Source of the DNA: Candidatus Nitrospira inopinata
GTDB lineage: Bacteria > Nitrospirota > Nitrospiria > Nitrospirales > Nitrospiraceae
Direction: 5' to 3'
Assembly: GCF_001458695.1 (NCBI RefSeq)
Contig: NZ_LN885086.1
Location: forward strand, 330,001-362,000
Length of the DNA stretch: 32,000 nucleotides
How positions within the stretch are numbered: the first letter of the stretch is position 1; every line of letters begins with the position of its first letter. The position numbers were made by a program, and so were the translations under genes. Under the pieces are notes generated by a model that saw only the letters and a list, made by a program, of their open reading frames with translations, made no database searches and was not told where the DNA came from. This document shows, in pieces, positions 1,653-21,924 of the stretch.

Positions 1653-2251
1653 GGCGTCAATCCTTCCTCGTAGGGGGCCAGGGCTTCTCGTAATTTAATC
1701 ATGTCCAATCTGATTCTCGTCTTCACGGTGCCGAGAGGCAACCGCAGGTGCTCCGCAATCTCACTCTGACTCAACCCATAAAAATAGGCCAGCGCGATGG
1801 CGCCGCGCTGCTCGTCGGTCAATGTCGCCAAGGCCTGGCGCACGAACCGTCGGCGCTCCTGCCCCGCCATGTCCTGTTCCGGTGTGTCCCCATCACTGGC
1901 GAACAACTCGGCGGCGTCCAGCGGTTCCAACCGTCCATACTCGGCCGCGCCCGCGCGGAATCGATCGATGGCCCTCGTTCTCGCCAACATCATCAACCAG
2001 GCGCCGGGCGCGCCTCTGGTTTGATCATAGGTATGGGCCTGACGCCATACTTGAGTATACACGTCCAACGTGACTTCCTCGGCGGCCTCGCGATTCTTGA
2101 GAATTTTGAGGGCTAGCCCGAACACCTGGGGGCTTGTCCGATCGTACAACGCGGCGAGCGCGGCCTGATCGCCCTGAGCGGTGAGCGCAATGAGATTGGC
2201 CCACTCTTCGTCTTGCGCCGGCTTGGTCGGTTCCATGGTCATGATCGGCAT
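1649..2251 (-). CDS. ECF (sigma-70 family) RNA polymerase sigma factor
   Basis: The ORF 1649..2419 was trimmed to the ATG at 2251, which follows GGAGGA plus 4 nt. Region 2 (EEVTLDVYTQVWRQAHTYD, AWLMMLARTRAIDRFR) and region 4 (LTDEQRGAIALAYFYGLSQSEIAEHLRLPLGTVKTRIR) are both present. Confidence 0.85.
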   Translation of the reverse strand: MPIMTMEPTKPAQDEEWANLIALTAQGDQAALAALYDRTSPQVFGLALKILKNREAAEEVTLDVYTQVWRQAHTYDQTRGAPGAWLMMLARTRAIDRFRAGAAEYGRLEPLDAAELFASDGDTPEQDMAGQERRRFVRQALATLTDEQRGAIALAYFYGLSQSEIAEHLRLPLGTVKTRIRLDMIKLREALAPYEEGLTP

Positions 2252-3203
2252 ACGGTCCTCCATCGCTCTACGAGTACGGGCCTGGGAGGAAGATCGGATT
2301 GCCGGTTGCTGGACGTTGATCGCTCGGTCGCGCGGGGCACTATAACACCGCATACATGGGTCGGCAAGAAAACCCGCCTCCATGAATACACCAAAAAATA
2401 GATCCGACCGGACGATCACCTCGTAGTGAGGAACGGACCGCCGGCATGAACGACATCACGCGACAGATGAGCAGCCCCAGTGATACCGAGACAAACTCTC
2501 CGCCACCCTCTTCCAGCAGCGCCGGTTCTAACAGACCAGGGCCAGCCACGCTTCCGGTCATGTTCGCTCATCCCGCCGGAAATGCCCGGGTGGGACAGAA
2601 GGTGTTCCGCTTTGAGACATTCGGAAATTAAAAATCGGGAATTAAAAAATCCGGACCGGCGCAGTCAGGTTGCCGCAGGGTATCGCCGCCGCGGGCATCA
2701 CGCCGCAAGCGACATCATCAGAACGACAGATCCAAATCGAACATCGTCTCGTAATGATGAACAAAGGGCCGTCTTCGGAGGCATCGACGTATTCAAGCTC
2801 AATGACCAAGGGGAACATTCAAACCATGTGGGGGTACCGGGGTCCGGAAGTCATGACGGCGCGGCTCCGGAACTAATTCTTTTATCGGTCTCGGTCGCCG
2901 ATGAAACCTCCGCGCAATCAGGAGTGAGCCGATGAATGCCTATCGTAAACTGGATATCAATCTGTCTCCTCGCCGGAACCCCCTCAAGGAAGACCTTCGT
3001 CAATTCGCCCGGATGGTCTTGCACCCGGCCGCCGCAGCCCTCGATCGCCTCAGCGACCCCACAATACGTGATCGATCCAGGCTCTCGAATCGCATGATGA
3101 ACTGGCCATCTCGTGCCTATCACAAGCCATTCGCTCCGTCGAAGATTTCGCAATCCGGGTGGAGAAAACGGCATCGGGCAACCATCAATAAAAGGAGGAA
3201 CCA

Positions 3204-3433
3204 TGAGATCGTCTGTGTATTCGTCCCTCGGTGTCGTGCTCGCGCTCGGACTCTTGTCCGGCTGCAGCGGCAGCGGCAGCGACACCGTACCCGTCGTCTC
3301 GCCGACCGGCCCCGTCGCCGCGATAGAGGACCAACGTGATTTGCCCGAACCGGAGGCGCTGACGTCGGAGGAAGCCACGCTGGTCGGCCAAGCCGAATCC
3401 GAACCCGATCCGGCCTCATTGCCGGATTTGTAA
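3204..3433 (+). CDS. Small lipoprotein, acidic and Pro-rich tail
   Basis: AGGAGG lies 5 nt before the ATG at 3204. The signal peptide carries a lipobox (LALGLLSGC). The gene sits immediately upstream of the DUF4331 gene on the same strand. Confidence 0.55.
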
Positions 3434-3477
3434 TCCACCCCGCTCGTGGAGCGGATCAACTCAGAAGGGAGGACCCC

Positions 3478-4965
3478 ATGTTCGCTCGAATTCGACCGCT
3501 CATCCTGACCGTGCTGGCGCTGTTTGTCGCGACGCCGGTCTTGGCCGCCAGCCACCGCGAGGCCCCGTTGATCGCCAATGATCCGACGGCGGACATCACG
3601 GACTTCTATTTCTTCCGGAGCTGGCAGGACCCAGACAAAGCCGTCCTGATCATGAACGTGATCCCCGGCCAGGAGCCGGGATCAGGCCCCAACTATTTCA
3701 ACTTCGCGGACGACGTGTTGTACGAAATTCATATCGACAACAATAAAAACAATATCGCCGCCGACATCGTGTATCAGATCCGTTTCAAGACCGAGATCCG
3801 CCCGCCGGGCAATGTCTTTCCGCTGTCCTATGTCGCGCTTCCACCGATCACGGCCCTCACGGGAAGCGGGTCGGAAGGACTGCTCCTCCGTCAAAGTTAC
3901 ACGGTGACGGAAGTCCGCTACGGCCGGCGACCGAGAGATCTCGGTACCGGCGTGATGTATGCCGTCCCCTCCAACGTGGGTCCCCGCACGATGCCGAACT
4001 GCGAGAGTCTCGCCGAGAAGGGCATCTATCCGCTGAGGAACGGCGGGCGAGTGTTTGCGGGTCAGCGTGATGAGACCTTCTACATCGACCTCGGTGGGAC
4101 GTTCGACGCGCTGAATCTGCACATCTCGCCGATTCTGTCCGACGCCGACGATGCCGACGACTCGATCATCGTCGGAGCGCCGGCATCCGGGAACGCCGAT
4201 ACGTTCAGCGGGTTCAACGTCAACACGATCGCGTTGGAAATCCCCATCAGTGAACTCGTCGGACCGAGGGGGAACAAGGTCCTCGGCGCCTATGCCACCG
4301 CGAGCCGGCCGAAAGTCAGCGTCATCAAGAAGAACGGCGACCGTCAGAACAGCCGCCGGTTTGTCCAGGTGGCGCGGATGGGCAATCCGTTGGTCAACGA
4401 GCTGATCATCCCGACGACCATGAAGGATAAGTGGAACGCGACCGATGCGGAAGACGAGAACGAGTTTGTCTCGTTCTACTGCAACTCCGCGCTGGCCACG
4501 GCGCTCGATACCGTGTTCGGCACCGGCTTCCCGACGGCAGGGCGTGAGGATCTCGTGAACGCGTTGCTTCGGTACGCACCCGGGCCATCGGTGTGCGGAT
4601 CGGGGAGAATCAATGAAAGGCTGGCCGACCTTCTGCGCGTCGATCTGGATATTCCTCCCACTCCGGCCGCCGCCCAGAAGCGACTGGGGCCGCTCGCCCA
4701 TGACGCAAGCGGCAATGCGACGCCGGATAGGGCCGGCTGGCCGAACGGCCGCCGGCCGAACGATGACGTCACCGACGTGGCCTTGCGCGTGGTGGCCGGA
4801 ATTTTGACGAACCCCGTGCCGAATCTCGGAGACGGCGTGAACTTCAATGTCGGGTCCGTCGGCGGCAATAAGACCGACAACGGTATCGCATTGGGGTTTC
4901 CCTTCCTTCCGACACCGCATGACGGACGGGACCGTCGGCATATCGATCCCCAGGAGAACTATTAA
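3478..4965 (+). CDS. DUF4331 domain protein, secreted
   Basis: GGGAGGA Shine-Dalgarno. The signal peptide ends ...TPVLA and is followed by the family hallmark ASHREAPLIANDPTADITDFYFF. This is the clean long ORF; the antisense 469-aa ORF is a shadow. Confidence 0.85.
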   Translation: MFARIRPLILTVLALFVATPVLAASHREAPLIANDPTADITDFYFFRSWQDPDKAVLIMNVIPGQEPGSGPNYFNFADDVLYEIHIDNNKNNIAADIVYQIRFKTEIRPPGNVFPLSYVALPPITALTGSGSEGLLLRQSYTVTEVRYGRRPRDLGTGVMYAVPSNVGPRTMPNCESLAEKGIYPLRNGGRVFAGQRDETFYIDLGGTFDALNLHISPILSDADDADDSIIVGAPASGNADTFSGFNVNTIALEIPISELVGPRGNKVLGAYATASRPKVSVIKKNGDRQNSRRFVQVARMGNPLVNELIIPTTMKDKWNATDAEDENEFVSFYCNSALATALDTVFGTGFPTAGREDLVNALLRYAPGPSVCGSGRINERLADLLRVDLDIPPTPAAAQKRLGPLAHDASGNATPDRAGWPNGRRPNDDVTDVALRVVAGILTNPVPNLGDGVNFNVGSVGGNKTDNGIALGFPFLPTPHDGRDRRHIDPQENY

Positions 4966-5062
4966 CCGTCCTGGTGGGAGGCGCCGCGCCGAGGTGCGAC
5001 GCCTCCCACCGTTCCCGAACATGGCATGACCCGGCGGCCGCACCGATATTCGAGAATAGACC

Positions 5063-6250
5063 ATGAATCGACTCCTTACCGTGGTCGGCATGATCGGCTG
5101 GTTCGTGTTGAGTGAAGTCGGCGCCTCGTACTCCGAGCCCTACCGGCCGACGGATGATGCGCGGGTCCTTGAGCGACTGAGTTTGAGAGCGTCCGATCCC
5201 TTCGCGCGCGAGATCGAACCCCTGCGAGCCGATCTGCGGCGGAATCCTCGCAATCTCGAGACTGCGGTCATACTGGCCGCTCGCTACATTGAACAAGGGC
5301 GATCGGAAGGCGACCCCCGTTTTCTTGGGCAAGCGCAGGCGGCCCTCAGTCCTTGGTGGAGCCGACCGACCCCTCCGCCCGCCGTGCTCCTCTTGCGAGC
5401 GACGATCAGGCAGAACGCCCATGAATTCGATCTCGCCCTGGCCGACCTCGATCAAGCGCCGGCGGTTCAACCGACCAACGCCCAAGCCTGGCTGACCAAA
5501 GCCTCCATCCTCCAGGTACAGGCTCGTTACGACGATGCGCGCCGAGCCTGCCGGAGGCTCGCACGGCTGGCTGCCTCTCATGTGCTTCTCGGATGCCTGG
5601 GAGACATCGCTGGAGTGACGGGCCAGTCGGCAAAGAGCCGAGCGTCACTCCGAGGGGTGCTGTCCGACCCAGGTCTTTCAGGTCGGGAGCGGATCTGGAT
5701 TGCGACGATCCTGGCCGAAACAGCCGCCCGCGCCGGGGCCATTCGTGATGCCGAGCAAGCCTTCGCCGACGCCTTCAAGGTCGGCATCAAGGATCAATAT
5801 TTGCTCGGTGCCTATGCGGATTTCCTGCTGGACCAGGGCCGGCATCGGGACGTCGTCTCTTTACTCCGACCTGAAACACGAGCCGATGGACTGCTCTTGC
5901 GATTGGCTCTCGCGGAGCAGGCGTTGAACCTGCCCGCGCTCCAGAACCATACGGCCGAATTGGCGGCTCGCTTCGCCGCGGCTCGCGAGCGCGGGACGAC
6001 CGTCCATGCCAGGGAGGAAGCGCGGTTTACGCTGGCGTTGTTGGGGGATTCGAAACGAGCGCTGGCGTTGGCTCGTGAGAATTGGAACGTCCAGCGGGAA
6101 CCGGCGGATGCCAGGATTCTCCTCGAATGTGCGCTGATAGCTGGAAACCGTGCGGCAGCTCAGCCGGCGCTCGATTGGATGAAACTTAACCGCGTGGAAG
6201 ACTTTCATCTGCAACGGCTCGCGCGGCAATTCCAGGAGGCCGCATTGTAA
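5063..6250 (+). CDS. TPR-repeat protein with N-terminal signal/anchor
   Basis: Ala/Leu/Arg-rich helical repeats run throughout (AVILAARYIEQGR, AQAWLTKASILQVQARYDDARRACRRL). The stop overlaps the start of the next gene (TAATG at 6248-6252). Confidence 0.7.
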   Translation: MNRLLTVVGMIGWFVLSEVGASYSEPYRPTDDARVLERLSLRASDPFAREIEPLRADLRRNPRNLETAVILAARYIEQGRSEGDPRFLGQAQAALSPWWSRPTPPPAVLLLRATIRQNAHEFDLALADLDQAPAVQPTNAQAWLTKASILQVQARYDDARRACRRLARLAASHVLLGCLGDIAGVTGQSAKSRASLRGVLSDPGLSGRERIWIATILAETAARAGAIRDAEQAFADAFKVGIKDQYLLGAYADFLLDQGRHRDVVSLLRPETRADGLLLRLALAEQALNLPALQNHTAELAARFAAARERGTTVHAREEARFTLALLGDSKRALALARENWNVQREPADARILLECALIAGNRAAAQPALDWMKLNRVEDFHLQRLARQFQEAAL

Positions 6251-7374
6251 TGCGTACCCTGCTTGTCATCGCCTGGCTTCTCGTCAGTCTCCCTGCTTGG
6301 GCCCACAAGCCCAGCGACGGCTATCTTTCCCTGTCGATTCAGCACGATCACATTGAAGGGCAGTGGGACATCGCGTTACGCGATCTCGACAATGCGATCG
6401 GATTAGACAGTGATGGAAACGGCGAACTCACCTGGGGAGAAGTCCGGAACAAGCATGATGCGATCCAGGCCTATGCCCTGTCTCGTCTGACACTATCCGC
6501 CGATCTACAGGCCTGTGCGACGCAGGTGCTGGAACAACTCATCGATCATCACACGGACGGAGCCTACTCGGTCCTGCGTTTCCGTTCAGATTGCGGCCGG
6601 ACAATCCAACGGCTCCATGTGGACTACCGACTGCTCTTCGACATCGACGCGCAACACAAGGGACTTCTTCGCTTGACCCAGGGCGGACACACCGGCACCG
6701 CCATTTTCAGTCAGGAGTCTCCGGCTCAAACATTCTCCATGGCGACCCGATCGCGCTGGATCGAAAGCGCCCAATTCATTCACGAGGGCATCTGGCACAT
6801 CTGGCTGGGGTTCGACCATGTCTTGTTTCTGCTTGTCCTCCTCCTTCCCGCCGTCTTAGTCCGAGTCGACGGCCGTTGGCAGGCCGTCACGGATTTCTCG
6901 ACGGTCTGGTGGAACGTCGTCAATATCGTCACGGCCTTTACCATCGCTCATTCGCTGACCTTGAGTCTGGCCGCCCTCGATATCGTCCACTTACCGTCCC
7001 GCTTAGTGGAATCGACCATCGCCGCCTCGGTTGTGCTCGCGGGGCTTGGTAATCTGTACCCCGCGATGGTGGCTCGTCGTTGGACGATCGCCTTTGGATT
7101 TGGGCTTATCCATGGATTCGGGTTTGCCGCGGCACTCACGGACCTAGGATTGCCTCAGAACTCAATAATGCTGAGCTTGGTCAGCTTCAACATCGGGGTG
7201 GAACTCGGCCAGATCGCCATCGTCGCCACGTTCTTGCCGCTTGCTTACCTGACCCGCCGCTCCTGGTCCTACCCAAGATTCGTCCTGGCCGGCGGATCGC
7301 TGGCGGTGACCGCCGTCGCGCTGATCTGGTTCACTGAACGGGCCTTCGACCTTCAATTGTTCGCCCACCAATAA
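6250..7374 (+). CDS. HupE/UreJ-family membrane protein with about 190-aa periplasmic N-terminal domain
   Basis: The signal peptide ends AWA-HKPSDG. The C-terminal half has multiple TM helices with HupE/UreJ-like motifs (HIWLGFDHVLFLL, AFTIAHSLTLS, GLIHGFGFA, NIGVELGQ). Confidence 0.75.
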   Translation: MRTLLVIAWLLVSLPAWAHKPSDGYLSLSIQHDHIEGQWDIALRDLDNAIGLDSDGNGELTWGEVRNKHDAIQAYALSRLTLSADLQACATQVLEQLIDHHTDGAYSVLRFRSDCGRTIQRLHVDYRLLFDIDAQHKGLLRLTQGGHTGTAIFSQESPAQTFSMATRSRWIESAQFIHEGIWHIWLGFDHVLFLLVLLLPAVLVRVDGRWQAVTDFSTVWWNVVNIVTAFTIAHSLTLSLAALDIVHLPSRLVESTIAASVVLAGLGNLYPAMVARRWTIAFGFGLIHGFGFAAALTDLGLPQNSIMLSLVSFNIGVELGQIAIVATFLPLAYLTRRSWSYPRFVLAGGSLAVTAVALIWFTERAFDLQLFAHQ

Positions 7375-7537: not shown

Positions 7538-8932
7538 CTACTCTCCCTGAATCGGCACGTACAGGACGTTCCCCTGCCGATTGACGAGCAGGAGGGCAAG
7601 ATCGGTCGGTTTGAGAGGATCGGCCAGCCGCTGCAAGGTGGAAAAACTCAAGACGGGCTGTCGGTTGAGTTCAAGAATGACGTCGCCCGGCTGAAGACCG
7701 GACACCTCGGCCGGCGCCCCCTCCTCGATATCGGTCACGACGACACCGCTCGTGACGGGCAAGTCCATCTGCCTCGCGAGCGAGACGGTGATGTCATCGA
7801 ACACCACGCCGGAGAGCGGATGCACGGCGGAGGCGACCGACGACGAGAGTTGGGCCTTCTTGGCTCGCTCGCGCGGAGCCTCTTGGATCACCAGTTCGGC
7901 CTGGTGCGGTCTGCCGTCTCGGATGAGATCGATCTGATGTTTGCTGCCGATCGGGGCTTGCGCGATGAGATTGCGCAGATGACCGCTGTCCATGACGTCG
8001 CGGCCGCCGAAACGCACGACCACGTCTCCCCGCTTGAGGCCGGCCCGTTCGGCCGACCCCTTGGGCTGCACGTCCGTCACGATCGCGCCCTTGATATCCG
8101 GCAGGCGGAAAATCTTGGCCAGCATCGGGCTCACGTCCTGCGTCGAGGCTCCGAGAAATCCTCGGACGACCCGACCGGTTTTGAGCAAACTTTGCATCGC
8201 GGCGCGAGCCATGTTGCTGGGAATCGCAAAGCCGACCCCCACGTTCCCGCCGGTGGGGCTCGCGATCGCCGTGTTGATGCCCACCAACTCGCCGTGGATG
8301 TTGACGAGGGCTCCTCCCGAATTCCCCGGATTGATTGGCGCATCGGTTTGGATGAAGTCCTCGAAGTCCGCCACACCGACATCCGCCCGTCCGACGGCGC
8401 TCACGATGCCGAAGGTCACGGTACGACTCAGTCCGAGCGGGCTGCCGATCGCCAACACAAAGTCCCCCACCGCGAGCTTGCTCGAGTCGCCCCAGGTCGC
8501 CGCCGCCAGATTCGTCGCTTGAATTTTCACCACCGCCACGTCGGTTTTCGGATCGCTCGCTACCACCTTCCCCTTGAACTGACGGCGATCAGACAAAATG
8601 ACTTCGACGTCGACCGCGTCGGCCACCACGTGGTTGTTCGTGACGATCAATCCGTCCGGCGAAACGATCACCCCGGACCCTTGGCCATATTGCCGGCGGG
8701 CCGGAGGCTCCTTGAACAGCCCGAACGGTAACGCCTCATCGCTGAACGCCTGGTCGCGCACCACCACGGTGGAGGCGATGCTCACCACCGCCGGAATGAC
8801 CTTGCCGGCGGCGGCCTTCACTTGACTCTGCAAATCCTGTCCACCGGCCGCGCGGACATCCGGCACATCCATCATCAAGCAGGCGAACACAGCCCAACCC
8901 GCTCTCATGCTCCAGACGGCCCATCCATTCAT
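7538..8932 (-). CDS. HtrA/DegP-family periplasmic serine endoprotease with two PDZ domains
   Basis: Catalytic motifs are present: TNNHVV (His), DVAVVK (Asp) and GNSGGALV (Ser). Two PDZ-like segments follow. The start is uncertain: ATG at 8932 or 8908, while the ORF is open to 9094. Confidence 0.9.
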   Translation of the reverse strand: MNGWAVWSMRAGWAVFACLMMDVPDVRAAGGQDLQSQVKAAAGKVIPAVVSIASTVVVRDQAFSDEALPFGLFKEPPARRQYGQGSGVIVSPDGLIVTNNHVVADAVDVEVILSDRRQFKGKVVASDPKTDVAVVKIQATNLAAATWGDSSKLAVGDFVLAIGSPLGLSRTVTFGIVSAVGRADVGVADFEDFIQTDAPINPGNSGGALVNIHGELVGINTAIASPTGGNVGVGFAIPSNMARAAMQSLLKTGRVVRGFLGASTQDVSPMLAKIFRLPDIKGAIVTDVQPKGSAERAGLKRGDVVVRFGGRDVMDSGHLRNLIAQAPIGSKHQIDLIRDGRPHQAELVIQEAPRERAKKAQLSSSVASAVHPLSGVVFDDITVSLARQMDLPVTSGVVVTDIEEGAPAEVSGLQPGDVILELNRQPVLSFSTLQRLADPLKPTDLALLLVNRQGNVLYVPIQGE

Positions 8933-9084
8933 CAACCGGCGCGTGTTCACTGGCCACACTCCCTTTTGATCATCTGGCCCCAGATCCAAATGGCAATGCT
9001 GCGCGAACCTACCATAGGAAACCGACTTCTGCATCATATTCGAGAGAGGCGTTCCTCTGGACAGAGGAGGGAGAACGGGCCCTC

Positions 9085-9918
9085 TTAAAACCACAGCCGC
9101 ACGCCGGCCACAAAACGAAGCTGACTGGGATTGCCGCCCTCGTCTCTCACCAACGTCGCGGTTTCGCCGAAACTTCGATCGATCGAGAATCCGACATAGG
9201 GGGCGAATTCCCGTCGGATCTCATAGCGGAGCCGCAGCCCGAACTCCAGATTGTTGAGGCCGGAGCCGGTTGTAAACCGCTCGACCCGTTGCGCCGCCAC
9301 GTTCGTTTCGAACCGCCCTTGCAGGATCAATCGCTGCGTCAGCAAGAAATCCTTCGTCAACGACAGCCGCCCCGAAACATGACCGCCTTGATCAATGAAG
9401 AGCGCGGCCTCCAGTTCATAATTGTACGGCACGAGGCCCTGGATGCCGATCACACCCAGTCCGCGCGTCACATTCCGTCCGCGGAACTGTTGCGTTTCAA
9501 TGCGCGAGCCGATCTGTACATCGTAGTATTTCGCGATGAACCGGCCGTACAACAGTTGGAAGTCCACGTCGTAGTCGGCCTTGAACGCCGTATCCTGCTG
9601 TCCCTCGCTTTTGAACCACAGCCGGTGATGGTCGCCGCCGTACCATCCGTCGATGTCCCATCGATAATCGTCCCGGCCGGGGCGGGCACCGCCGGCCGGA
9701 CGATATTCCAGCACGTCAATCAGCGTAAACAGATAGGGCCGCTGGTCGTGCACGGGGCTCGGCCAATTCGCCAACGGAGGGGGCAGCGGTATTGGTGGCG
9801 ACAGGGGAGATTCGGTCGATGGTTGTGCGCCGGCATCGGAGGCCAGACCGATCCCCACGAAGCAGGCCACGAAGCAAGCCAGGACAGCCGCCCACGGCCA
9901 TGGCCTCCCAGTCCTCAT
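9085..9918 (-). CDS. copB: Copper resistance protein B (CopB/PcoB outer-membrane protein)
   Basis: The ATG at 9918 overlaps the copA stop (ATGA). There is a signal peptide, and the DYRWDIDGWYGGDHHRLWFKSEG block is typical of CopB. The protein ends in an aromatic residue (RLWF), as beta-barrel proteins do. Confidence 0.85.
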   Translation of the reverse strand: MRTGRPWPWAAVLACFVACFVGIGLASDAGAQPSTESPLSPPIPLPPPLANWPSPVHDQRPYLFTLIDVLEYRPAGGARPGRDDYRWDIDGWYGGDHHRLWFKSEGQQDTAFKADYDVDFQLLYGRFIAKYYDVQIGSRIETQQFRGRNVTRGLGVIGIQGLVPYNYELEAALFIDQGGHVSGRLSLTKDFLLTQRLILQGRFETNVAAQRVERFTTGSGLNNLEFGLRLRYEIRREFAPYVGFSIDRSFGETATLVRDEGGNPSQLRFVAGVRLWF

Positions 9919-11807
9919 GACGGGCTGTTCCGCTCGCCGCCGGCAACCTCGACGACTCTGAACATCCCGGCCTCCATGTGCAACAAGAGATGACAGTGGA
10001 GCGCCCACCGCCCGGGGGCGTCAACCGTCACGGCGACGGAGAGCCGCTCCGCCGGTTTGACGATCACCGTATGCTTACGCGGCAGAAACTCGCCGGCGCC
10101 ATTTTCCAGCTCCATCCACATCCCGTGCAGATGAATCGGGTGCTCCATCATCGTATCGTTCACGAAGACCAGCCGCAGCCGCTCGCCGTCGCGAAGGGGG
10201 ATCGGGGCGGGGGCCTCCGAATACTTCCTGCCGTCGAACGACCAGAGATACCGCACCATGTGGCCGGTGAGATGCAGTTCGATCGACCGTTCCGGCTCCC
10301 GTCGGTCATCCATGGGAGCGAGCCGTTTCAAGTCGGTATAGACCAACACCCGCCGTTCCATTTGATCAAGCCCCGTTCCCGGTTCCATCAGCCGGCTCCT
10401 GGCATATTCGGCTACCATCTGATTACCGGTTCCATGGTCGTCAGGACCATGCCGAACCCACTCCATGCCGACACCGCCAGAGAGTGCCCGACCCGCGACC
10501 ATTCCATGGCCATGCCCCGCGTGACCTTCGTCGGGCGAATGTCCAGGCGATCCGTGCCGAGCCTGTGCCATCCCATGTGACCGGTGCTCGTCACGCCCCG
10601 CATCCATCCCGGCCATGATCATTCCTTCCATCTCCATCTTCATACCCATCCCCATGTCATCCATCGTGCGGAGCGGACGTGGGCGGCGCGGGGGAAGATC
10701 GCCGCTCATACCAGGTCGCGGGGCAAGCGTGCCTCGTGCGTAGCCGCTTCGATCCATCGCCTCGGCGAAAATGGTATAGGCTCGGTCTTCCTCCGGCCGA
10801 ACGATCACGTCGTAGGTCTCAGCCGGCCCCATACGCAGTTCCTCCACCGTGACCGGTTGAACATTCTGCCCGTCGGCCTGCACGACCCTCATGGCGAGCC
10901 CCGGCACCCGCACATCGAAAAATGTCGTGGCCGCCGCATTGATCAATCGCAACCGCACCGACTCGCCGGGCTGAAACAGCCCCGTCCAGTTTCCAGACGG
11001 CGAAAGACCGTTCAGCAGATAGATCAAGGCGGAGCCGGTCACGTCGGCAAAATCCGTCGGGTCCATCCTCATCCAGTCCCACAGCAAATAATCCTGAAGC
11101 GCCGGCCAAAATCCCATCCGTCTCACATCCGACACGAATTCCACCGCCGTTCGTTTTTGAAAGTTGTAGTATCCACTGGTCTTCTTGAGATTGGCCAGAA
11201 TCGTCTCCGGTTCCTCGACACTCCAGTCCGACAACAGCACGACATAGTCACGGTCAGAGCGAACAGGCTCTGGTTCCCGTGGCTCGATGATCAACGGCCC
11301 GTACATCCCCTTCAATTCCTGGCCGCCTGAATGGCTGTGGTACCAATAGGTACCGTTCTGTTGCACCGGAAAACGATAGGTAAAGCTCTCGCCCGGTTCG
11401 ATGCCCGCGAAACTGACGCCGGGAACCCCATCCATCTCGAACGGCAGCAGAATCCCGTGCCAATGAATCGAGGTCGGCTCCCGCAAATGGTTCGTCACGC
11501 GGATCGTAACCTCTTGCCCTTCCTGTAGTCGAAGGAGAGGGCCGGGAACCGTGCCGTTGATCGTCACGGCGGTGCCGGCCCGTCCATCGACCGTGAAGGA
11601 TCGCTCGCCGATCACGAGATCGATCAGCTCGCCGCTCAGGACCGACGGTTGCGTGCCGGCAGAGGGACCACGATGGCTCGCCCGGCCTGCGCACGCCGCA
11701 AGAAGCGACGGGATCGCCGCCAGCAACCCCAGCGCCCCGGCCCGTTTCAGCAGCAGACGTCTCGAAATCCCACCGCTCTCCTCTTCTGCTTCCTCGCGAT
11801 GCCGCAT
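9915..11807 (-). CDS. copA: Copper resistance multicopper oxidase CopA/PcoA (Tat-exported)
   Basis: Trimmed to the ATG at 11807. Twin-arginine signal (SRRLLLKRAGALG). Copper-ligand motifs are HWHG, WYHSH, HPIHLHG and HCHLLLHME. There is an internal Met/His-rich insert (MDDMGMGMKMEMEGMIMAGM...HGHGM). Confidence 0.9.
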   Translation of the reverse strand: MRHREEAEEESGGISRRLLLKRAGALGLLAAIPSLLAACAGRASHRGPSAGTQPSVLSGELIDLVIGERSFTVDGRAGTAVTINGTVPGPLLRLQEGQEVTIRVTNHLREPTSIHWHGILLPFEMDGVPGVSFAGIEPGESFTYRFPVQQNGTYWYHSHSGGQELKGMYGPLIIEPREPEPVRSDRDYVVLLSDWSVEEPETILANLKKTSGYYNFQKRTAVEFVSDVRRMGFWPALQDYLLWDWMRMDPTDFADVTGSALIYLLNGLSPSGNWTGLFQPGESVRLRLINAAATTFFDVRVPGLAMRVVQADGQNVQPVTVEELRMGPAETYDVIVRPEEDRAYTIFAEAMDRSGYARGTLAPRPGMSGDLPPRRPRPLRTMDDMGMGMKMEMEGMIMAGMDAGRDEHRSHGMAQARHGSPGHSPDEGHAGHGHGMVAGRALSGGVGMEWVRHGPDDHGTGNQMVAEYARSRLMEPGTGLDQMERRVLVYTDLKRLAPMDDRREPERSIELHLTGHMVRYLWSFDGRKYSEAPAPIPLRDGERLRLVFVNDTMMEHPIHLHGMWMELENGAGEFLPRKHTVIVKPAERLSVAVTVDAPGRWALHCHLLLHMEAGMFRVVEVAGGERNSPS

Positions 11808-12236
11808 GGCGCTTGACCCTCTGTTCCTTCCTGACAGGTGACCATGTTGACGCCGCATTCTACTCTTTCGGGGCCGGCAGAGATCCGCCCCGCCACAAGG
11901 CATAGAGCACCGGAATCACCAGCAATGTCAGCACGGTCGAGCTTATCATGCCGCCGATCATCGGCGCGGCGATGCGTTTCATCATGTCAGCGCCGGGGCC
12001 GGTGGTCCCCATGAGAGGGAGCAAGCCACCCATGATGGCGACGACGGTCATCATCTTGGGTCGCACGCGTTGCACCGCCCCCTCCATGATGGCCTCGCGC
12101 AGATCCTGCGCCGTGGCCAGGCGCCCTTCGCCCATACGCCGCTCAGCGGCTTCATCGAGATAGACCAGCATCACCACGCCCGTCTCCGCCGCCACGCCGG
12201 CCAGCGCAATGATTCCCACCCACACCGCCACGCTGA
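11553..12236. repeat. Direct repeat copy 1 (684 bp): copA 5' end + intergenic + cusA 3' end
   Basis: Base-for-base identical, by eye, to 19930-20613 at a constant offset of 8377 bp. The ORF-track peptides 11948..12163 and 20325..20540 are identical. Confidence 0.95.
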
Positions 12237-15018
12237 GATTGTAGCCCAGGAAATGGAGATACCAGATGGCTCCGATCGCAGCGAAGGGGACAGAAAGTAT
12301 TACGATCAGCGATTTCGCGAGCGAACGGAAATTGAGGTAGAGGAGCAACAGGATCACAGCCAGGGTCGCAGGAACCACCATTTTCAGCCGCTCTTCCGCC
12401 CGCATCAGATGTTCGTATTGCCCGGTCCAAATCAAGCGGTAGCCGGGCGGAAGCGTGACCAGCTCACGAACCACTCGTTGGGCCTCTTGCACATAGCCGC
12501 GCAAATCGCGGCCACTGACCGACACCGACACGAGCCCCACCAATGTGCCTGCCTCATCCGCGATCGACGGCGGCCCCTGGGTGATGACGAGATCTGCAAT
12601 GTGGCCAAGGGGAATTTGCGCACCGGTCGGTGTGGGAATGCGCACCCGCTTGAGCCGCTCCGGATCATCACGCAGCTCGCGCTTGTAGCGGATGATGACC
12701 GGGTACCGCTCCCGCCCCTCGACCGTCGTGGTCACGGTTTCTCCCCCGATAGCCGACGTGATGACCGCTTGCACATCTCCCACCGTCAAGCCGTAGCGAG
12801 CCGCCTCGCGCCGATTGATGATGAGATCCACGTAATAGCCTTCGTTCAGCCGCTCGGCGAAGGCGCTCGTCGTGCCGGGCACGGTCGCCAAGGCCCGCTC
12901 GATCTCGATACCGATTCGCTCGATCGTCTTTAAGTCAGGCCCCAGCACCTTGATCCCGACCGGACTCCGGACACCGGTCGTGATCATCTCCGTCCTGGTC
13001 TGGATCGGCATCCACCAGATGTTTGGAAATCCCGGAATGCGGAGCTTGGCATCCATCTCATCCAGTAAGCGATCCCAAGTCATGTCGGGTCGCCACTGGG
13101 TCTCTGGCTTCAATGTCGCGGTGATCTCGGCCATTCCGACGAAGGCCGGGTCGGTGGCCGTCGGCGCTTTTCCCATTTTGCCGAACACCCGTTCCACTTC
13201 CGGGAAGGTCATGAGCAACTGATCCTGGACCTGCAACACCTTGGCCGCTTCCGGGATGGAGAGGCCAGGGACGGTGGTCGGCATATAGAGGATGGTCCCC
13301 TCGTTCAGCGGCGGCATGAATTCGGCGCCGAGGCGCATGAACACCGGCACCGTGGCGGCCACGGACACGACCGCCACCCCCACCGTCAGCCACCGGATCC
13401 GCAATGCGCCCGCAAGAATGGGCCGATACAGGGCGATGAGCCACCGGTTCAGCGGGTTCTCGCGTTCCGCTCGGATACGTCCGCGAAGCAGAACCACCAT
13501 GAGTACCGGTGCCAATGTCACCGAGAGCGCGGCGGCAAAGAGCATCGAAAAGGTCTTGGTAGAAGCCAACGGTGCGAACAGTCGCCCTTCCTGCGCTTCC
13601 AAGGCGAAGATCGGCAGGAACGACACGGCGATCACCAGCAGCGAAAAGAACAGGGGCCGCCCGACCTCTTTTCCCGCCGCGACGATGATTTCCGTTCGGT
13701 TGCTTTCACGCCCGCCCGCCCCAGGCGCGCCGGGACGCGCCTCTTTCCACAAGGGAGATTGCTCCAACCGTTTATGGGCATTCTCGACCATCACGATCGC
13801 GGCATCGACCATCGCGCCGATGGCGATAGCGATGCCACCGAGTGACATGATGTTGGAGGTGATCTTCAAATAGGCCATCGGGATAAATGCGAGCAACACG
13901 GCCACCGGCAGGATCAGGATGGCCACTAACGCACTTCGAAAGTGACCTAGGAAGACCACCGCGACCAGGCCGACGATCACACTTTCTTCGAGCAGTTTCT
14001 CGCGGAGGACGGCGATCGCGCGACGAATGAGATCGGACCGATCGTAGGTAGGGACTATGCGTACGCCTTGGGGTAAGGCCGGGGCGATGTCTTCCAGCCT
14101 TGCTTTGATCCGCTCGACCACGGCAAGCGCGTTTTCTCCGGCCCGCATGATCACGATCCCGCCGACCGTCTGGCCCTTGCCGTCCAGTTCGGCAATGCCA
14201 CGACGCTGGTCCGGCCCAAGTTGGACATGAGCAATATCGCGAATGAAGATAGGCGTGCCTCGTCCATCCGTCCCGACCGGAATCAGTTCAATCTCATCAA
14301 CCGAGCGTAGGTAGCCACGTCCGCGGATGACATACTCGGTGCCGGCCATCTCCAACACTCGGCCGCTCACCTCCGCATTGCTCTTGCGGATCGCCTCGAT
14401 CACGGCTTGAATCGGGAGTCGATACGCCGCCAACGTGTTCGGATCCACTTCGATTTGGTACTGTTTGACAAATCCGCCGATCGATGAGACCTCCGCCACG
14501 CCGGGCACACTCTCCAATTGGTAACGCAGATACCAATCCTGAAGGCTGCGGAGCTGCGCCAAATCGTAGGTCCCGGATTCATCCACCAAGGCATACTGAT
14601 AGACCCACCCGACCCCGGTTGCATCCGGCCCCAAGGTCGGCGTGACACCGATTGGCAACTTGCCGGTGAGCCTCTGGAGATATTCGAGGACACGACTTCT
14701 CGCCCAGTACAAGTCTGTTCCATCTTCGAAGATCACGTAGACATAGGAAACTCCGTATTCCGAGACACCGCGGACCCGTTTGACCCTCGGACCAGCGAGC
14801 AGAGATGTCACGAGCGGGTAGGTAATTTGGTCTTCCATGAGAGTGGGGCTGCGCCCTGGCCACTCGGTGTAGATGATCACTTGGACATCGGACAGATCAG
14901 GAATCGCATCGAACGGAACCTGGAACAATGCCCAGACTCCCCAGGCTGCGAGCAGCGACACACAGAGGATAACTAGAACCGGATTGCGGGCGCTTCCTTC
15001 AATGAGTCGCGCGATCAT
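11860..15018 (-). CDS. cusA: CusA-type heavy-metal (Cu/Ag) RND efflux pump
   Basis: 1052 aa with full RND topology. The TM4 signature MSLGGIAIAIGAMVDAAIVMVENAHKRLE is almost identical to E. coli CusA. Confidence 0.95.
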   Translation of the reverse strand: MIARLIEGSARNPVLVILCVSLLAAWGVWALFQVPFDAIPDLSDVQVIIYTEWPGRSPTLMEDQITYPLVTSLLAGPRVKRVRGVSEYGVSYVYVIFEDGTDLYWARSRVLEYLQRLTGKLPIGVTPTLGPDATGVGWVYQYALVDESGTYDLAQLRSLQDWYLRYQLESVPGVAEVSSIGGFVKQYQIEVDPNTLAAYRLPIQAVIEAIRKSNAEVSGRVLEMAGTEYVIRGRGYLRSVDEIELIPVGTDGRGTPIFIRDIAHVQLGPDQRRGIAELDGKGQTVGGIVIMRAGENALAVVERIKARLEDIAPALPQGVRIVPTYDRSDLIRRAIAVLREKLLEESVIVGLVAVVFLGHFRSALVAILILPVAVLLAFIPMAYLKITSNIMSLGGIAIAIGAMVDAAIVMVENAHKRLEQSPLWKEARPGAPGAGGRESNRTEIIVAAGKEVGRPLFFSLLVIAVSFLPIFALEAQEGRLFAPLASTKTFSMLFAAALSVTLAPVLMVVLLRGRIRAERENPLNRWLIALYRPILAGALRIRWLTVGVAVVSVAATVPVFMRLGAEFMPPLNEGTILYMPTTVPGLSIPEAAKVLQVQDQLLMTFPEVERVFGKMGKAPTATDPAFVGMAEITATLKPETQWRPDMTWDRLLDEMDAKLRIPGFPNIWWMPIQTRTEMITTGVRSPVGIKVLGPDLKTIERIGIEIERALATVPGTTSAFAERLNEGYYVDLIINRREAARYGLTVGDVQAVITSAIGGETVTTTVEGRERYPVIIRYKRELRDDPERLKRVRIPTPTGAQIPLGHIADLVITQGPPSIADEAGTLVGLVSVSVSGRDLRGYVQEAQRVVRELVTLPPGYRLIWTGQYEHLMRAEERLKMVVPATLAVILLLLYLNFRSLAKSLIVILSVPFAAIGAIWYLHFLGYNLSVAVWVGIIALAGVAAETGVVMLVYLDEAAERRMGEGRLATAQDLREAIMEGAVQRVRPKMMTVVAIMGGLLPLMGTTGPGADMMKRIAAPMIGGMISSTVLTLLVIPVLYALWRGGSLPAPKE

Positions 15019-15084
15019 TCCTTCTCACCCCTCCTCGACCTGCCAAGACAGGCTGTTTTCCCGTTAGATGCCCGCTTTTCCCGG

Positions 15085-16866
15085 CTACAGGCCTCCCACG
15101 GCGACCGAGAACCGAAACCGCTCGACGATAGGCGGTTGGCCCGGCACCGTCACGTTGACCGTCACCACCCACGTGCCGGCCATACCGAACAGCACCGTGC
15201 CTTCGTAGAGCCCGTCATTGATGTGGTGCGCCGGCGCCTTGGAATCGATCATGCCCGGCATCGGCATGGTGTAGACGAAGAGGACTTGCGCATTCGTCAC
15301 CGGCTTGCCGGTCCGATCGGTCAATTTGAGTTTGAGCAGGGCTTCACCGGCCTTGGGCGTTTCGGGAAGAGTCCTGAAGTTCAGGATGTATCCGTCCGCC
15401 ACGCGAGTTTCAGAGACGGCTTTCCCTGAACCCGAGTCCATACCCGACATACCGCTCATGTCCTTCATCCCTGGCATTTCTTCCATGCCCTTCATACTCT
15501 CCATACCTTTCATCCCTTGCATGCCGGACATGCCTTCCATCCCTTCCATCTTGGCTTCATAGGCACCGCGCATTTGCCAGTCGCCCATGCCGATTCGACC
15601 CATCATGGCTTGCATGCTAGACGCCGAGGTCAATTTGCTCTCTGCGTCCAACAAGAAATTGGCCGAGGTGACGACCCGATCGCCCTCTTTAAGCCCTTCG
15701 AGAATTTCCACACGATCCCGCCCTTGTCGGCCAAGTTTGACGGCCATAGGTTCATACCGGCCTTCGCCCCGATCTATAAACACAAGCTGGCGAAGCCCGG
15801 TGTCCAACACAGCCTCCTTTGGCATCACCAAGGTCTTGCCCATATCGGTCCGTACGACCACGTTTCCGTACATGCCCGGCTTCAATGTCAGCTTGGGATT
15901 CGGCAATTCCAGCCGCACCCGTACGGTGCGGGCTCCTGTATTGAGCGTCGGGGACACATAAGCCACCTTGCCGTGGAATGATTTGCCTGGGTAGGCGGCA
16001 AAGGTGACCGTGACCGGCAGGCCGACTTTCACGGCCGCCATTTCTGATTCATAAATCTCGGCATGGATCCAGACCGTGGAGAGATCCGCGATCTCATACA
16101 GGATCGTGCCAGGCTCCACATATTTGCCCGGCAACGCCTCCCGCCTCATCACAATTCCAGACGACGGCGCATAGACCGTCAGAACCGGGCTGCCCTGACC
16201 TCGACGCTCCAGGGTCGCGATCTGCTCATCGGTCACATCCCAGAGGCGAAGTCGTTCTCGCGCGCTCGCCACGAGCGCAGCAGCGTGCTCCTTCGCGTCG
16301 GGTAGCGGGCTGGCAGCCAATTGAGCCTGCGCCCTGACCGCCAAAAGGTATTCTTCCTGGGTGGCAAGGAGATCCGGCGAGTAGAAGGTCAAGAGCGGTT
16401 CGCCTTTTCGAACCGGTTGACCGGTCGAATTGACGAAGACCTCTCTCACCCACCCCGATGTTTTCAGCGTGACTTGCGTAAATCCACGTTCATCGTAGCC
16501 GACCGTTCCAACCGCGCGGATCTCTTGCTCCAACATCGCGTAACCTACCGGAGCACTGCGGACGCCGATCGACTGCCTTACCACAGCCGGAACGGTCACC
16601 GCCACGGAGGGAACATCGGATGTGTCCCCTCCAGGGCCCATGCCCTTCATGGCCGTCGTTCTCTCCACCGACACCCCCTGCCTGTCTCCCCTGCTCGTCG
16701 CTCCCTCTATTTCTTCCATGGACATGCCGTCCATCCCATGGCCCCTCATCCCGGACATACCGTCCATTCCCCTATAGGCGGCGAAGAATCCGGCTATGGC
16801 CCCGACGAGCAAACCGGCCGCTGTACTCCAGACAGCAAGCCCTGCTCCGCGTCTATTGCGACTCAT
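15085..16866 (-). CDS. cusB: CusB-like RND periplasmic adaptor with Met-rich segments and a C-terminal YtkA/FixH-like domain
   Basis: Start set at the ATG at 16866 (GGAGGA plus 6 nt). Membrane-fusion-protein core (YAPSSGIVMRR...VWIHAEIYE...RVRLELPN). Met-rich tracts lie near the N-terminus and after the core. The last roughly 110 aa resemble the YtkA-like fold. Confidence 0.85.
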   Translation of the reverse strand: MSRNRRGAGLAVWSTAAGLLVGAIAGFFAAYRGMDGMSGMRGHGMDGMSMEEIEGATSRGDRQGVSVERTTAMKGMGPGGDTSDVPSVAVTVPAVVRQSIGVRSAPVGYAMLEQEIRAVGTVGYDERGFTQVTLKTSGWVREVFVNSTGQPVRKGEPLLTFYSPDLLATQEEYLLAVRAQAQLAASPLPDAKEHAAALVASARERLRLWDVTDEQIATLERRGQGSPVLTVYAPSSGIVMRREALPGKYVEPGTILYEIADLSTVWIHAEIYESEMAAVKVGLPVTVTFAAYPGKSFHGKVAYVSPTLNTGARTVRVRLELPNPKLTLKPGMYGNVVVRTDMGKTLVMPKEAVLDTGLRQLVFIDRGEGRYEPMAVKLGRQGRDRVEILEGLKEGDRVVTSANFLLDAESKLTSASSMQAMMGRIGMGDWQMRGAYEAKMEGMEGMSGMQGMKGMESMKGMEEMPGMKDMSGMSGMDSGSGKAVSETRVADGYILNFRTLPETPKAGEALLKLKLTDRTGKPVTNAQVLFVYTMPMPGMIDSKAPAHHINDGLYEGTVLFGMAGTWVVTVNVTVPGQPPIVERFRFSVAVGGL

Positions 16867-18172: not shown

Positions 18173-18319
18173 AGGATGGTCCTCCACAAGAGCTATTCCG
18201 CCCGCGTCTATCGCGAACCTCAACTCCCGTCCGCTACGGAAGTGACGATGGAATAAGCTCGGACTGAGTGCGGGGCAGATGAAACGATGGCGAAACGGTG
18301 TAAGGGAAAACCGGCGAGA

Positions 18320-20236: not shown

Positions 20237-20613
20237 CTACTCTTTCGGGGCCGGCAGAGATCCGCCCCGCCACAAGGCATAGAGCACCGGAATCACCAGC
20301 AATGTCAGCACGGTCGAGCTTATCATGCCGCCGATCATCGGCGCGGCGATGCGTTTCATCATGTCAGCGCCGGGGCCGGTGGTCCCCATGAGAGGGAGCA
20401 AGCCACCCATGATGGCGACGACGGTCATCATCTTGGGTCGCACGCGTTGCACCGCCCCCTCCATGATGGCCTCGCGCAGATCCTGCGCCGTGGCCAGGCG
20501 CCCTTCGCCCATACGCCGCTCAGCGGCTTCATCGAGATAGACCAGCATCACCACGCCCGTCTCCGCCGCCACGCCGGCCAGCGCAATGATTCCCACCCAC
20601 ACCGCCACGCTGA
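20237..20613 (-). pseudogene. cusA 3' fragment (last ~125 codons), part of repeat copy 2
   Basis: The C-terminal peptide VAVWVGIIALAGV...LPAPKE is identical to CusA. Upstream of it, the 229-aa ORF is unrelated sequence. Confidence 0.9.
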
Positions 20614-20937
20614 AGGGAGCTTCACCGCTGACTGACTGATTGCTACACCTCCTCAACATAGCTACGCAGATCGCCCACGGCGGCACCGACATGCTCGACC
20701 CCCATGGCAGCCATGGTCTTGGGCCGCCATGGCCTTGGCCATCGAGAACGCACTCGTTCGTCATGAACGAGAGTGAGCGCCTCATCAGACCGATCGGATC
20801 ACCTCTCCTGTTCTGACATTCAGTTTGCCTTGCCCTGGCGTAGGCGGAGCCACGCAAGAACCTGGGGCACACGCGCAGTTCCAGGCCCAGGATCGCACCC
20901 GACGTGAGCAAGGCACAACAAGGCACAAGGAGCGAAA

Positions 20938-21408
20938 GTGCGAACGGACCCGATTCAGATCAAGCCAGGCGAGGCGGGACGGCTCATCTATGATCTGGAG
21001 CGGAGATTAGGCAGCGTCGTCCTGCCGAATGCATTGGATCGGAAGTATCCCCAGGCGAGCCGAGAGGGGGGCTGGCAGTGGGTCTTCCCAGCCTCGAAGT
21101 ATTACACCCATCCGGTGACGCGTGAGCCGTACAGACATCCCCTGCATGAATCCGTCCTGCAGAAGGCCGTCAAAGAAGCCGCCCGCAAGGCTGGGCTCGC
21201 CAAGCCGGCCAGTTGCCACACGTTTCGCCATTCCTTGGCAACTCACCTCCTGAAGGATGGCTACGACATCCGCACAGTCCAAGAGCTCCTTGGGCATAAG
21301 GATGTGCATGCCGTCATGATCGACACGCATGTCCTGAATCGAGGTGGACGTGGGGTCTGCAGCCCCGCAGACCGGCTGGGACAAGGATTAAGCCCTTCGC
21401 AGCCATAA
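20938..21408 (+). pseudogene. intI: Integron integrase (IntI) C-terminal fragment, catalytic Tyr replaced by Asp
   Basis: [25 protein letters not shown] is the IntI-specific insertion. [12 protein letters not shown] and LLGH boxes are present. The last box reads [18 protein letters not shown] where IntI and Xer recombinases have M-I-Y-T-H-V. About 170 N-terminal residues, including box I, are absent. Confidence 0.75.
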
Positions 21409-21917: not shown

Positions 21918-21924
21918 CTTTCAC

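Follow-up and report, generated by a model that had tools for sequence, protein, structure and literature searches.

A DUF4331-TPR-permease operon of Candidatus Nitrospira inopinata as a candidate metal capture-and-import pathway under ECF sigma factor control

What is the role of four adjacent genes that all encode exported or membrane proteins, and of which the longest product is a member of the DUF4331 family? This question is raised by an operon in a 32,000-nt stretch of the Candidatus Nitrospira inopinata genome (NCBI RefSeq assembly GCF_001458695.1, contig NZ_LN885086.1, positions 330,001 to 362,000 of the forward strand), hereafter called the window, to which coordinates refer unless they follow the number of a compared locus (L001 and the like). 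The operon consists of four closely spaced co-directional genes on the + strand (3203-7374), for a small lipoprotein, a DUF4331 protein, a partner resembling tetratricopeptide repeat (TPR) proteins and a permease of the HupE_UreJ_2 type. The answer that we favour, with a probability of roughly 0.55, is that these proteins form an extracytoplasmic capture-and-import pathway for a divalent transition metal, nickel or copper in the first place, under the control of a sigma factor of the extracytoplasmic function (ECF) type. An earlier reading of the same DNA, made from its letters alone (the sequence-only reading), had suggested a nickel or copper acquisition or sensing module; this suggestion stands as the best-supported one, but of the neighbourhood adduced for it the copper/silver (Cu/Ag) resistance genes proved incidental and the nikR link turned out to be limited to Nitrospira.

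The operon and the recurrence of its core across phyla

The features of the operon are the following.

3203-3433, + strand: lipoprotein gene, 76 amino acids (aa), product small and acidic; AAGGAGG ribosome-binding site, lipobox L-S-G-C
3478-4965, + strand: DUF4331 gene, 495 aa; GGGAGG ribosome-binding site; PF14224 at E = 1.6e-103
3478-3546, + strand: Sec signal peptide of the DUF4331 protein; predicted mature start A-S-H at 3547-3555
5063-6250, + strand: gene of the exported TPR-like partner, 395 aa; weak TPR matches
6250-7374, + strand: HupE_UreJ_2 permease gene, Ang-like (see below), 374 aa; PF13795; ATGA stop/start overlap with the TPR gene
6250-6303, + strand: signal peptide of the permease, followed by its His1 (6304-6306), a beta-sandwich N-terminal domain (N-domain, to ~6774) and the transmembrane domain (~6775-7371)

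Open reading frames (ORFs), export signals and Pfam matches agree on four co-directional genes for exported or membrane proteins, as the sequence-only reading had described them, with the correction that the first ATG lies at 3203 and not at 3204. In Pfam searches the lipoprotein matched no family and the TPR protein gave only sub-threshold TPR matches. The DUF4331 protein scores 347.6 bits against a cut-off of 27, with its residues 25-480 aligned to profile positions 2-421, and its closest homologues (68-90% identity) come from metagenome-assembled Nitrospira genomes. The permease matches PF13795 only (E = 9.7e-49, residues 176-337 only) and not PF04955, the family of the classical HupE/UreJ proteins. 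The statement that none of the four genes has an established function has to be amended for the HupE_UreJ_2 class: a study of 2025 (Franco Cairo et al., Nat Commun 2025, PMC12537917) characterised a relative's N-terminal domain.

At 50% identity the DUF4331 family falls into 4,796 clusters. One genome per species was scanned with a 15-sequence alignment as query; at least 592 stretches with DUF4331 relatives were confirmed, and 80 loci were kept for comparison. The kept loci span at least eight phyla (Nitrospirota, Gamma- and Betaproteobacteria, Acidobacteriota, Actinomycetota, Chloroflexota, Binatia, Spirochaetales and candidate phyla), the proteobacterial carriers including Nitrosomonas, Methylomonas, Competibacter, Accumulibacter and Thiobacillus. 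Profiles of the window proteins were run against all ORFs of these loci, and their matches were counted over the 75 loci in which 3.2 kb or more of sequence follows DUF4331. A TPR gene lies directly 3' of DUF4331 in 60 of the 75 loci and a permease lies near it in 48, of which 19 are of the HupE_UreJ_2 type and 29 of the NicO type, an assignment borne out by Pfam in 10 of 10 examples; an ECF sigma gene is present in 31 (flanks of up to 7 kb on each side). The conserved core is DUF4331, the TPR protein and a metal permease of the LysE superfamily, and the recurrence of this trio across phyla confirms the association of DUF4331 with TPR and HupE-like genes for which a neighbourhood survey had been proposed. 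HupE and NicO are both nickel/cobalt transporter families.

The arrangement of the core varies from lineage to lineage. In Nitrospira CP060499.1, one strand carries the sigma, anti-sigma, nikR, DUF3842 and TonB-dependent receptor genes and the opposite strand those of the lipoprotein, DUF4331, TPR and HupE_UreJ_2 proteins; in a distant Nitrospirota locus the order is TPR, HupE_UreJ_2, a small gene and DUF4331, adjoining a sigma gene with an RskA-type anti-sigma gene and without nikR. The trio is also found in annotated records of Marinobacter adhaerens HP15 (HP15_RS21330-21315) and of Pseudoalteromonas (RB214_RS20375-20400), the latter with sigma/anti-sigma genes immediately upstream. Some Acidobacteria have a TonB-dependent receptor as third gene in the permease's place, and in one lineage a DUF4331 gene whose product carries a type IX secretion tail is followed by the TPR gene and then by a short HupE_UreJ/HupE_UreJ_2 permease gene. 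Homologues of the lipoprotein were found by sequence in Nitrospira only, and unrelated small lipoproteins flank DUF4331 in Marinobacter and Paracoccus. On plasmid pHP-187 of Marinobacter adhaerens HP15 (L087 509-7557), the genes that precede a DUF4331-lipoprotein-TPR-HupE cluster encode a PhoD-family alkaline phosphatase, a metallophosphoesterase, a DUF3299 protein and a PKD-domain protein, a layout that could link the module to the metal supply of exported phosphatases.

The closest homologues of the permease occur in Betaproteobacteria, in TPR-HupE_UreJ_2 pairs with no DUF4331 gene within 7-9 kb (L090 7796-10125, L091 5820-8128, L092 5862-8917, L093 5826-8970). In two of these four loci a DUF4198 gene stands immediately beside the pair, and DUF4198 and DUF4331 were found together in 2 of 87 loci. 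DUF4198 resembles DUF4331 in its position beside TPR-HupE_UreJ_2, in its NikR and TonB-dependent receptor neighbours, as at the Nitrospira locus, and in being exported with an N-terminal His; it differs in its unrelated fold and family, in its length (~260 versus ~470 aa) and in carrying the His at position 1 instead of, most likely, position 3. The DUF4198 protein of PDB entry 9GCB binds nickel with a dissociation constant (Kd) of 18 nM, and NikR and a TonB-dependent receptor are its usual neighbours (PMC12537917). Searches of the searchable literature with the family names DUF4331, PF14224 and HupE UreJ returned no paper; relative to that literature, the DUF4331-TPR-permease relay and its ECF-type promoter appear to be new.

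Predicted N-terminal histidines of the DUF4331 protein and of the permease

Removal of the leader from the exported DUF4331 protein would bare the sequence [A/S]-S-H-x-E-A-P, as an X-X-H site for Cu(II) or Ni(II) or as part of a larger site, and the protein, periplasmic or located at the cell surface, would then bind its metal. In the window the tripeptide is A24-S25-H26 (3547-3555). H26 is invariant in DUF4331 alignments of 97 and of 145 diverse members, in which S25, E28, A29, P30, D39 and D42 are invariant or nearly so. In a census of the N-termini of 390 DUF4331 sequences, the motif falls within the first 110 residues in 368 and is preceded by a leader in 357. The His-ending tripeptide of these 357 is SSH in 203, ASH in 149 and ANH, SNH or TSH in 5, with SSH, ASH, SNH and ANH together accounting for 355; its second position holds Ser in 353 and Asn in 4 and never Pro, and the residues preceding it nearly always end in Ala (VFA, AFA, VLA, SLA, AGA). 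Cleavage after x-x-A would give X-X-H in 346 of the 357 sequences.

These counts and the invariant His support the conservation of X-X-H across DUF4331 homologues. The amino-terminal Cu(II)/Ni(II) (ATCUN)-type start A-S-H that had been proposed for the mature protein is upheld in so far as a His two residues past a canonical A-x-A is invariant in the whole family; a cut directly before the His, however, fits the cleavage rule too. The X-X-His register is favoured because, at signal-peptidase sites, Ala is far commoner than Ser at position -1 (von Heijne statistics) and because a leaderless DUF4331 subfamily starts M-S-S-H-[RK]-E-A-P, with an ATG, a Shine-Dalgarno sequence and an upstream in-frame stop (L070 6998-8781, L073 6998-8697, L074 588-2392, L077 8431-10448, L084 7037-8727, L085 7139-8509). 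Removal of the initiator Met from the leaderless form would reproduce S-S-H. The His of the mature DUF4331 protein, judged from these N-termini, most likely stands at position 3. The hosts of the leaderless subfamily are Actinomycetes and Chloroflexi, and TPR and permease genes are absent from its loci; at most of them the next gene encodes a conserved protein of ~105 aa that belongs to no Pfam family and has the motif VLDIGG..GAL...EIE.SP.

The predicted A-S-H/S-S-H start shares with ATCUN proteins such as serum albumin (DAH) and human Ctr1 (MDH) a residue other than Pro at position 2, an extracytoplasmic location and a metal-handling context. A simple ATCUN site has no need for an invariant Ser2 or for x-E-A-P. 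Because Ser2 and the x-E-A-P that follows the His are invariant as well, the candidate metal site of DUF4331 is likely to be more elaborate than a free ATCUN tripeptide. The AlphaFold2 model of the protein, built from 145 sequences (predicted local distance difference test, pLDDT, 84.9; predicted template modelling score, pTM, 0.87), has two lobes over ~470 residues, a predicted beta-sandwich and then a helical lobe. Foldseek searches of the PDB with this model gave no match at E <= 0.001 (best E = 0.033, template modelling (TM) score <= 0.12), the matches to leukocidin, Fab and phytase being rejected as noise (TM <= 0.12), and a sequence search of the PDB with DUF4331 found no relative.

The permease carries the signal-peptidase site AWA/HKPSDG, at which the sequence-only reading had placed its maturation, and neither A18 nor H19 varies among 13 diverse homologues or 121 further ones; because of this invariance the mature HupE_UreJ_2 permease is predicted to begin with His. 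In its AlphaFold2 model (pLDDT 87.2) the N-domain is a beta-sandwich and the membrane domain behind it is helical. With Foldseek, the N-domain matches 9GCE, the Cu-bound structure of Ang-1 (E = 5e-6, probability 1.00, target-normalised TM 0.59, 14% identity), as well as the Zn-binding proteins ZrgA and PA4063 (TM 0.55-0.64, identity 10-12%). By sequence, 9GCE was not found in the PDB at E <= 10 with phmmer of the N-domain or with a 13-sequence profile, and PDB sequence searches with the full permease, the profile and the N-domain gave nothing.

In the Ang-HupE/UreJ-2 proteins, the permeases of the 'anglerase' model, the conservation of His1 is 100% and the residue forms a mono-histidine brace; the His1 of the Ang-1 protein RbAng-1a (9GCE) binds Cu2+ with a Kd of 74 nM and Ni2+ with a Kd of 220 nM, binding by His1 having been measured for RbAng-1a and MmAng-2a only, and the Ang domain has been proposed to 'fish' metal ions and to pass them to the permease (PMC12537917). 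DUF4331, TPR partners, NicO-type equivalents and sigma-factor control are not mentioned in that paper. The window protein has the signal peptide, the invariant His1, the beta-sandwich domain and the order of domains around PF13795 in common with the Ang-1 and Ang-2 permeases. It differs from Ang-1 (9GCE) in that its N-domain has no detectable sequence similarity to it and its subfamily has conserved features of its own, namely H101, D103, D133, H136, a Cys pair and an EF-hand-like loop. For these two reasons we call the permease Ang-like and do not assign it to Ang-1; it is possibly a member of a third class. An EF-hand-like loop is seen in both kinds of N-domain, at 6403-6441 (residues 52-64, LDSDGNGELTWGE) in the window and as DRDGDGQVSxAE in the NicO type (e.g., L006 and L062), which suggests that Ca2+ is bound there structurally or that there is a second metal site.

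The window permease keeps the motifs HIWxGxDH, AHS, HGFGFA and NxGVExGQ and has the same LysE-superfamily permease fold as the classical HupE/UreJ proteins (PF04955). In those proteins too, removal of the signal peptide leaves a His at the mature N-terminus, but they are without the extra N-terminal domain of ~155 residues. ZrgA of V. cholerae and PA4063 of P. aeruginosa have the beta-sandwich fold of the N-domain and are likewise periplasmic metal handlers that feed an inner-membrane importer; unlike the N-domain, they are free-standing, serve ABC transporters, are controlled by Zur and bind Zn through His-rich loops. The NicO-type partners (29 loci) start, behind the signal peptide, with H-P-[LM]-G-N-F, and their transmembrane domain is RcnA-like, with HAxxPGHGK, GGxxPCP and a cytoplasmic His-rich loop. 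These motifs and the His-rich loop are common to them and to RcnA/NicO (PF03824); RcnA is without their His1-capped N-terminal domain of ~230 residues, and the window operon has no NicO gene. Homology between the N-domains of the HupE_UreJ_2 and NicO types was considered and found no support (hhalign probability 1%). The exported TPR protein, whose residues H120 and F122 are invariant across homologues, would act as the adaptor.

A promoter motif shared by the operon and a divergent sigma factor gene

Upstream of the operon, the following features were located.

188-691, - strand: nikR; Pfam NikR_C and RHH_1; NCBIfam NF003381 at 200.6 bits against a cut-off of 105; true start likely at 604 (MKKLVRFG...)
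696-719, - strand: ATCC-N16-CGTA promoter-like motif, upstream of nikR
753-1652, - strand: anti-sigma gene with C-terminal ChrR-type cupin; Pfam Cupin_7 at E = 1.5e-19
1649-2419, - strand: ECF sigma gene, SigK-like; Sigma70_r2 and r4_2 domains; true start probably near 2240-2265, homologues being called at 200 aa
2275-2299, - strand: ATCC-N17-CGTA promoter-like motif, facing the sigma gene
2402-2425, + strand: ATCC-N16-CGTA promoter-like motif, facing the lipoprotein-DUF4331 operon
2730-2753, + strand: second operon-side promoter-like motif, inside a spacer specific to the window

The motif ATCC-N16/17-CGTA emerged when the intergenic regions between the divergent genes of three Nitrospira loci were compared. 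It has 4 matches in the window against 1.19 expected, all of them in the cluster and correctly oriented. Because the motif was derived from Nitrospira sequences, its occurrence in other phyla provides an independent test. In the 400 bp upstream of DUF4331, read on the coding strand, [AG]ATCC-N16/17-CGTA is found in 26 of 81 loci, compared with 0.39 expected, which is the mean for shuffled sequences (maximum 3), and intragenic windows gave zero. The operon-side motif at 2402-2425 is kept in L001, L007 and L004, the sigma-side motif in L001 and L007, and equivalent motifs stand ahead of nikR in the Nitrospira loci L001 and L007. The tie between the operon and the ECF sigma/anti-sigma pair, already suspected from their proximity, is thus borne out by a shared promoter motif that is enriched across phyla.

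We propose that the divergent SigK-like ECF sigma factor would drive the operon through these promoters. The motif facing the sigma gene would imply autoregulation, and in Nitrospira the same sigma factor appears to drive nikR, behind which relatives have a DUF3842 gene and a TonB-dependent receptor gene. Among NCBIfam models the sigma factor fits SigK best, its 176 bits falling short of the cut-off of 226, and the SigK regulon (mpt70/mpt83) is unrelated to the DUF4331 operon. Its partners are of the kinds known from SigK-RskA (ECF19) and ChrR-type systems, the loci of relatives using an RskA_C anti-sigma factor and the window a ChrR-type cupin; over the survey, the anti-sigma partner is RskA-type in 14 loci and ChrR-type in 11. 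The ChrR-type anti-sigma factor of the window has no transmembrane segment (top 19-residue hydropathy mean 0.81), and the cupin ligand motif PHxHx3EE...GDYH...GxxH is kept in 11 of 11 homologues. This soluble protein would restrain the sigma factor, and its cupin domain, to judge by the ligand motif, may sense the cytoplasmic metal status. The signal sensed by SigK/RskA systems is unknown according to the literature.

Between the motif at 2402-2425 and the lipoprotein gene lies a spacer of ~700 bp (2430-3200), the orthologous gap in Nitrospira being ~150 bp; it shows no similarity to any compared locus and no convincing ORF. An inverted repeat (2715-2726 and 2749-2760) flanks the second motif in this spacer.

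Of nikR and the ECF pair, both placed about 1 kb away by the sequence-only reading, the sigma gene does start at ~0.8-0.95 kb from the operon, but nikR is at ~2.5 kb. Linkage of nikR to the operon is confined to Nitrospira, where it lies directly downstream of the anti-sigma gene in L001, L003 and L007. Just upstream of the nikR start, a direct repeat GTGCTA-N14-GTGCTA (625-650, - strand; 0.02 matches expected per window) has a near-identical counterpart, GTGCTA...GTGCCA, at the same place in L001, and may be an operator. Riboswitch searches found none in the window (E <= 1) and none upstream of DUF4331 in nine distant loci.

The metal, the direction of transport and competing explanations

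Nickel and copper are the leading candidates for the metal, and the two are not separable here. Pointing to nickel are the adjacent nikR and TonB-dependent receptor genes in Nitrospira, the DUF4198 gene that takes DUF4331's place beside the TPR-permease pair in Betaproteobacteria, and urease genes directly upstream of the cluster in two Chloroflexia loci. In the latter (L059 18-12653 and L067), the DUF4331-TPR-NicO cluster lies on the same strand directly downstream of ureAB, ureC, ureF and ureD, with the promoter motif between the urease genes and the cluster. As regards copper, Cu(II) is the preferred ion of ATCUN sites and of His braces, and many carriers of the module are organisms with a high copper demand. 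RbAng-1a, too, binds Cu more tightly than Ni (PMC12537917). The precedent of HupE, the TonB-dependent receptor, the type IX tags, the urease genes and the DUF4198 context favour import, and the TonB-dependent receptor genes and type IX tails also point to the cell surface as location; the RcnA-like NicO-type partners would fit export.

The copper/silver genes downstream of the operon occupy one block.

7538-18223, - strand: degP, copB, copA and cusCBA

As functional context for the operon this cluster was rejected: even close relatives do not keep the linkage, cop/cus genes being absent beside the orthologous operon in L001, L002 and L004, and no cop/cus cluster recurs in the 85-locus survey. 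The supporting role that it had been given is withdrawn, as the corresponding locus of other Nitrospira and Nitrospirota is without it, and because of this lack of conservation the cop/cus neighbourhood carries no weight for the metal or the direction.

Several observations weigh against an import pathway for nickel or copper with the His of DUF4331 as the capture site. A cut after A-[AS]-S, which leaves His1, satisfies the -3/-1 rule as well, in 352 of the 357 sequences, and the AlphaFold2 confidence at residues 21-30 of DUF4331 is only ~57. Invariant residues far from the N-terminus (R300, E308, K316, R356, D358, R387, N423-R425, D429/D430 and D452) go beyond what an ATCUN tail needs, and could mark the active site of an enzyme or the binding site of a metal chelate. 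The nikR tie belongs to one lineage and the urease tie to another, each to a single one, and no suitable NikR-type palindrome was found at 2230-3210, the NikR operator of Nitrospira itself not being identified. Stress responses are more usually placed under an ECF sigma factor than metal-starvation regulons are, and E. coli RcnA, which the NicO-type partners resemble, is an exporter. The literature search found no experiment on any DUF4331 protein or TPR partner.

Protection from excess metal would use the same proteins in another sense: DUF4331 would buffer periplasmic Cu or Ni in the manner of CopC, PcoE, CusF or RcnB, the permease would be there to export or redistribute that metal, with the ECF sigma factor answering metal or redox stress. 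The window operon adjoins degP, copB, copA and cusCBA, metal resistance is commonly regulated by ECF pairs (CnrH and CorE, for example), the NicO-type partners resemble an exporter, and ChrR-type anti-sigma factors respond to oxidative or cadmium stress according to the name of the NCBIfam model. We nevertheless hold this explanation to be unlikely, as the cop/cus neighbourhood is not kept even in close relatives, the TonB-dependent receptor, urease, nikR and DUF4198 neighbours indicate acquisition, and DUF4331 variants secreted by the type IX system are a poor fit to periplasmic buffering; in addition, the characterised HupE/UreJ proteins are importers and the Ang domain is read as feeding the permease (PMC12537917). 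An extracytoplasmic metalloenzyme, such as a His-brace-type oxidase or a hydrolase/phosphatase, with the N-terminal His as catalytic metal ligand and the TPR protein and permease supplying or recycling the metal, would account for the many invariant polar residues far from the N-terminus and for the large two-lobed fold of 470 residues. A cut directly before the His would give it a His1 as in lytic polysaccharide monooxygenases, and phosphatase genes occur as neighbours, PhoD and a metallophosphoesterase beside the Marinobacter cluster and metallophosphatases among the neighbours of the Ang-2 class (PMC12537917). DUF4331 has, however, no similarity in fold or sequence to any enzyme (best Foldseek E = 0.033, TM <= 0.12), no substrate-related genes recur in the surveyed DUF4331 neighbourhoods, and related His1 proteins show no meaningful catalytic activity (PMC12537917). 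The tight coupling to a permease and the replacement of DUF4331 by the binding protein DUF4198 better suit a carrier, and we regard an enzyme as improbable.

The operon might also be an envelope-stress or housekeeping unit unrelated to metals, whose N-terminal conservation would reflect signal-peptidase recognition and folding only. A-[AS]-S before the His can indeed be read as a cleavage motif, the TPR protein is without metal motifs save one invariant His, and the literature names no signal for SigK/RskA-type systems. Yet the His is invariant even in the leaderless proteins, in which no cleavage motif is needed, the permeases come from three families of metal-cation transporters and keep their His/Asp/Glu transmembrane motifs, and the His1 of a protein structurally related to the permease N-domain binds Cu and Ni; we consider this explanation very improbable.

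A bolder form of the capture-and-import reading, which we put forward tentatively and believe rather less than the reading itself, is that DUF4331 would constitute a new class of exported X-X-His (ATCUN-type) capture proteins with a fold of their own, which would hand Ni(II) or Cu(II) through a dedicated TPR adaptor to His1-capped LysE-superfamily permeases (HupE_UreJ_2, HupE and NicO), and that the module would be a multi-phylum core regulon of SigK-like ECF sigma factors acting at ATCC-N16/17-CGTA. If this were true, the long-unknown signal of this group of sigma/anti-sigma factors would be the availability of a transition metal, sensed by a cupin or an RskA domain. Through the conserved promoter motif, the question of what SigK/RskA-type ECF systems sense can be approached. 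DUF4331, a family without a solved structure, gains a testable functional hypothesis through its putative TPR adaptor and three permease families of the Ni/Co type, and the 'anglerase' model of 2025 would be extended from a single fused domain to a relay of several proteins. Nickel serves urease and hydrogenase, and copper serves nitrite reductase, ammonia monooxygenase and particulate methane monooxygenase. The supply of the two metals limits nitrifiers and methanotrophs, and Nitrospira, Nitrosomonas and Methylomonas all have the module.

Further observations concern the rest of the window. The CusB-like membrane-fusion protein of the Cu/Ag block (15085-16887, - strand) has an additional C-terminal YtkA-like domain (residues 507-577). 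An ORF of 229 aa (20237-20926) matches solely the C-terminal end of resistance-nodulation-division (RND) pumps (ACR_tran positions 911-1019) and is likely a gene remnant. It is bordered by an island of low G+C content (GC; 21000-26000, GC 0.49-0.54 versus ~0.61), which contains genes for a DNA methylase and a BsoBI-type restriction endonuclease (22540-24926) and was probably acquired horizontally.

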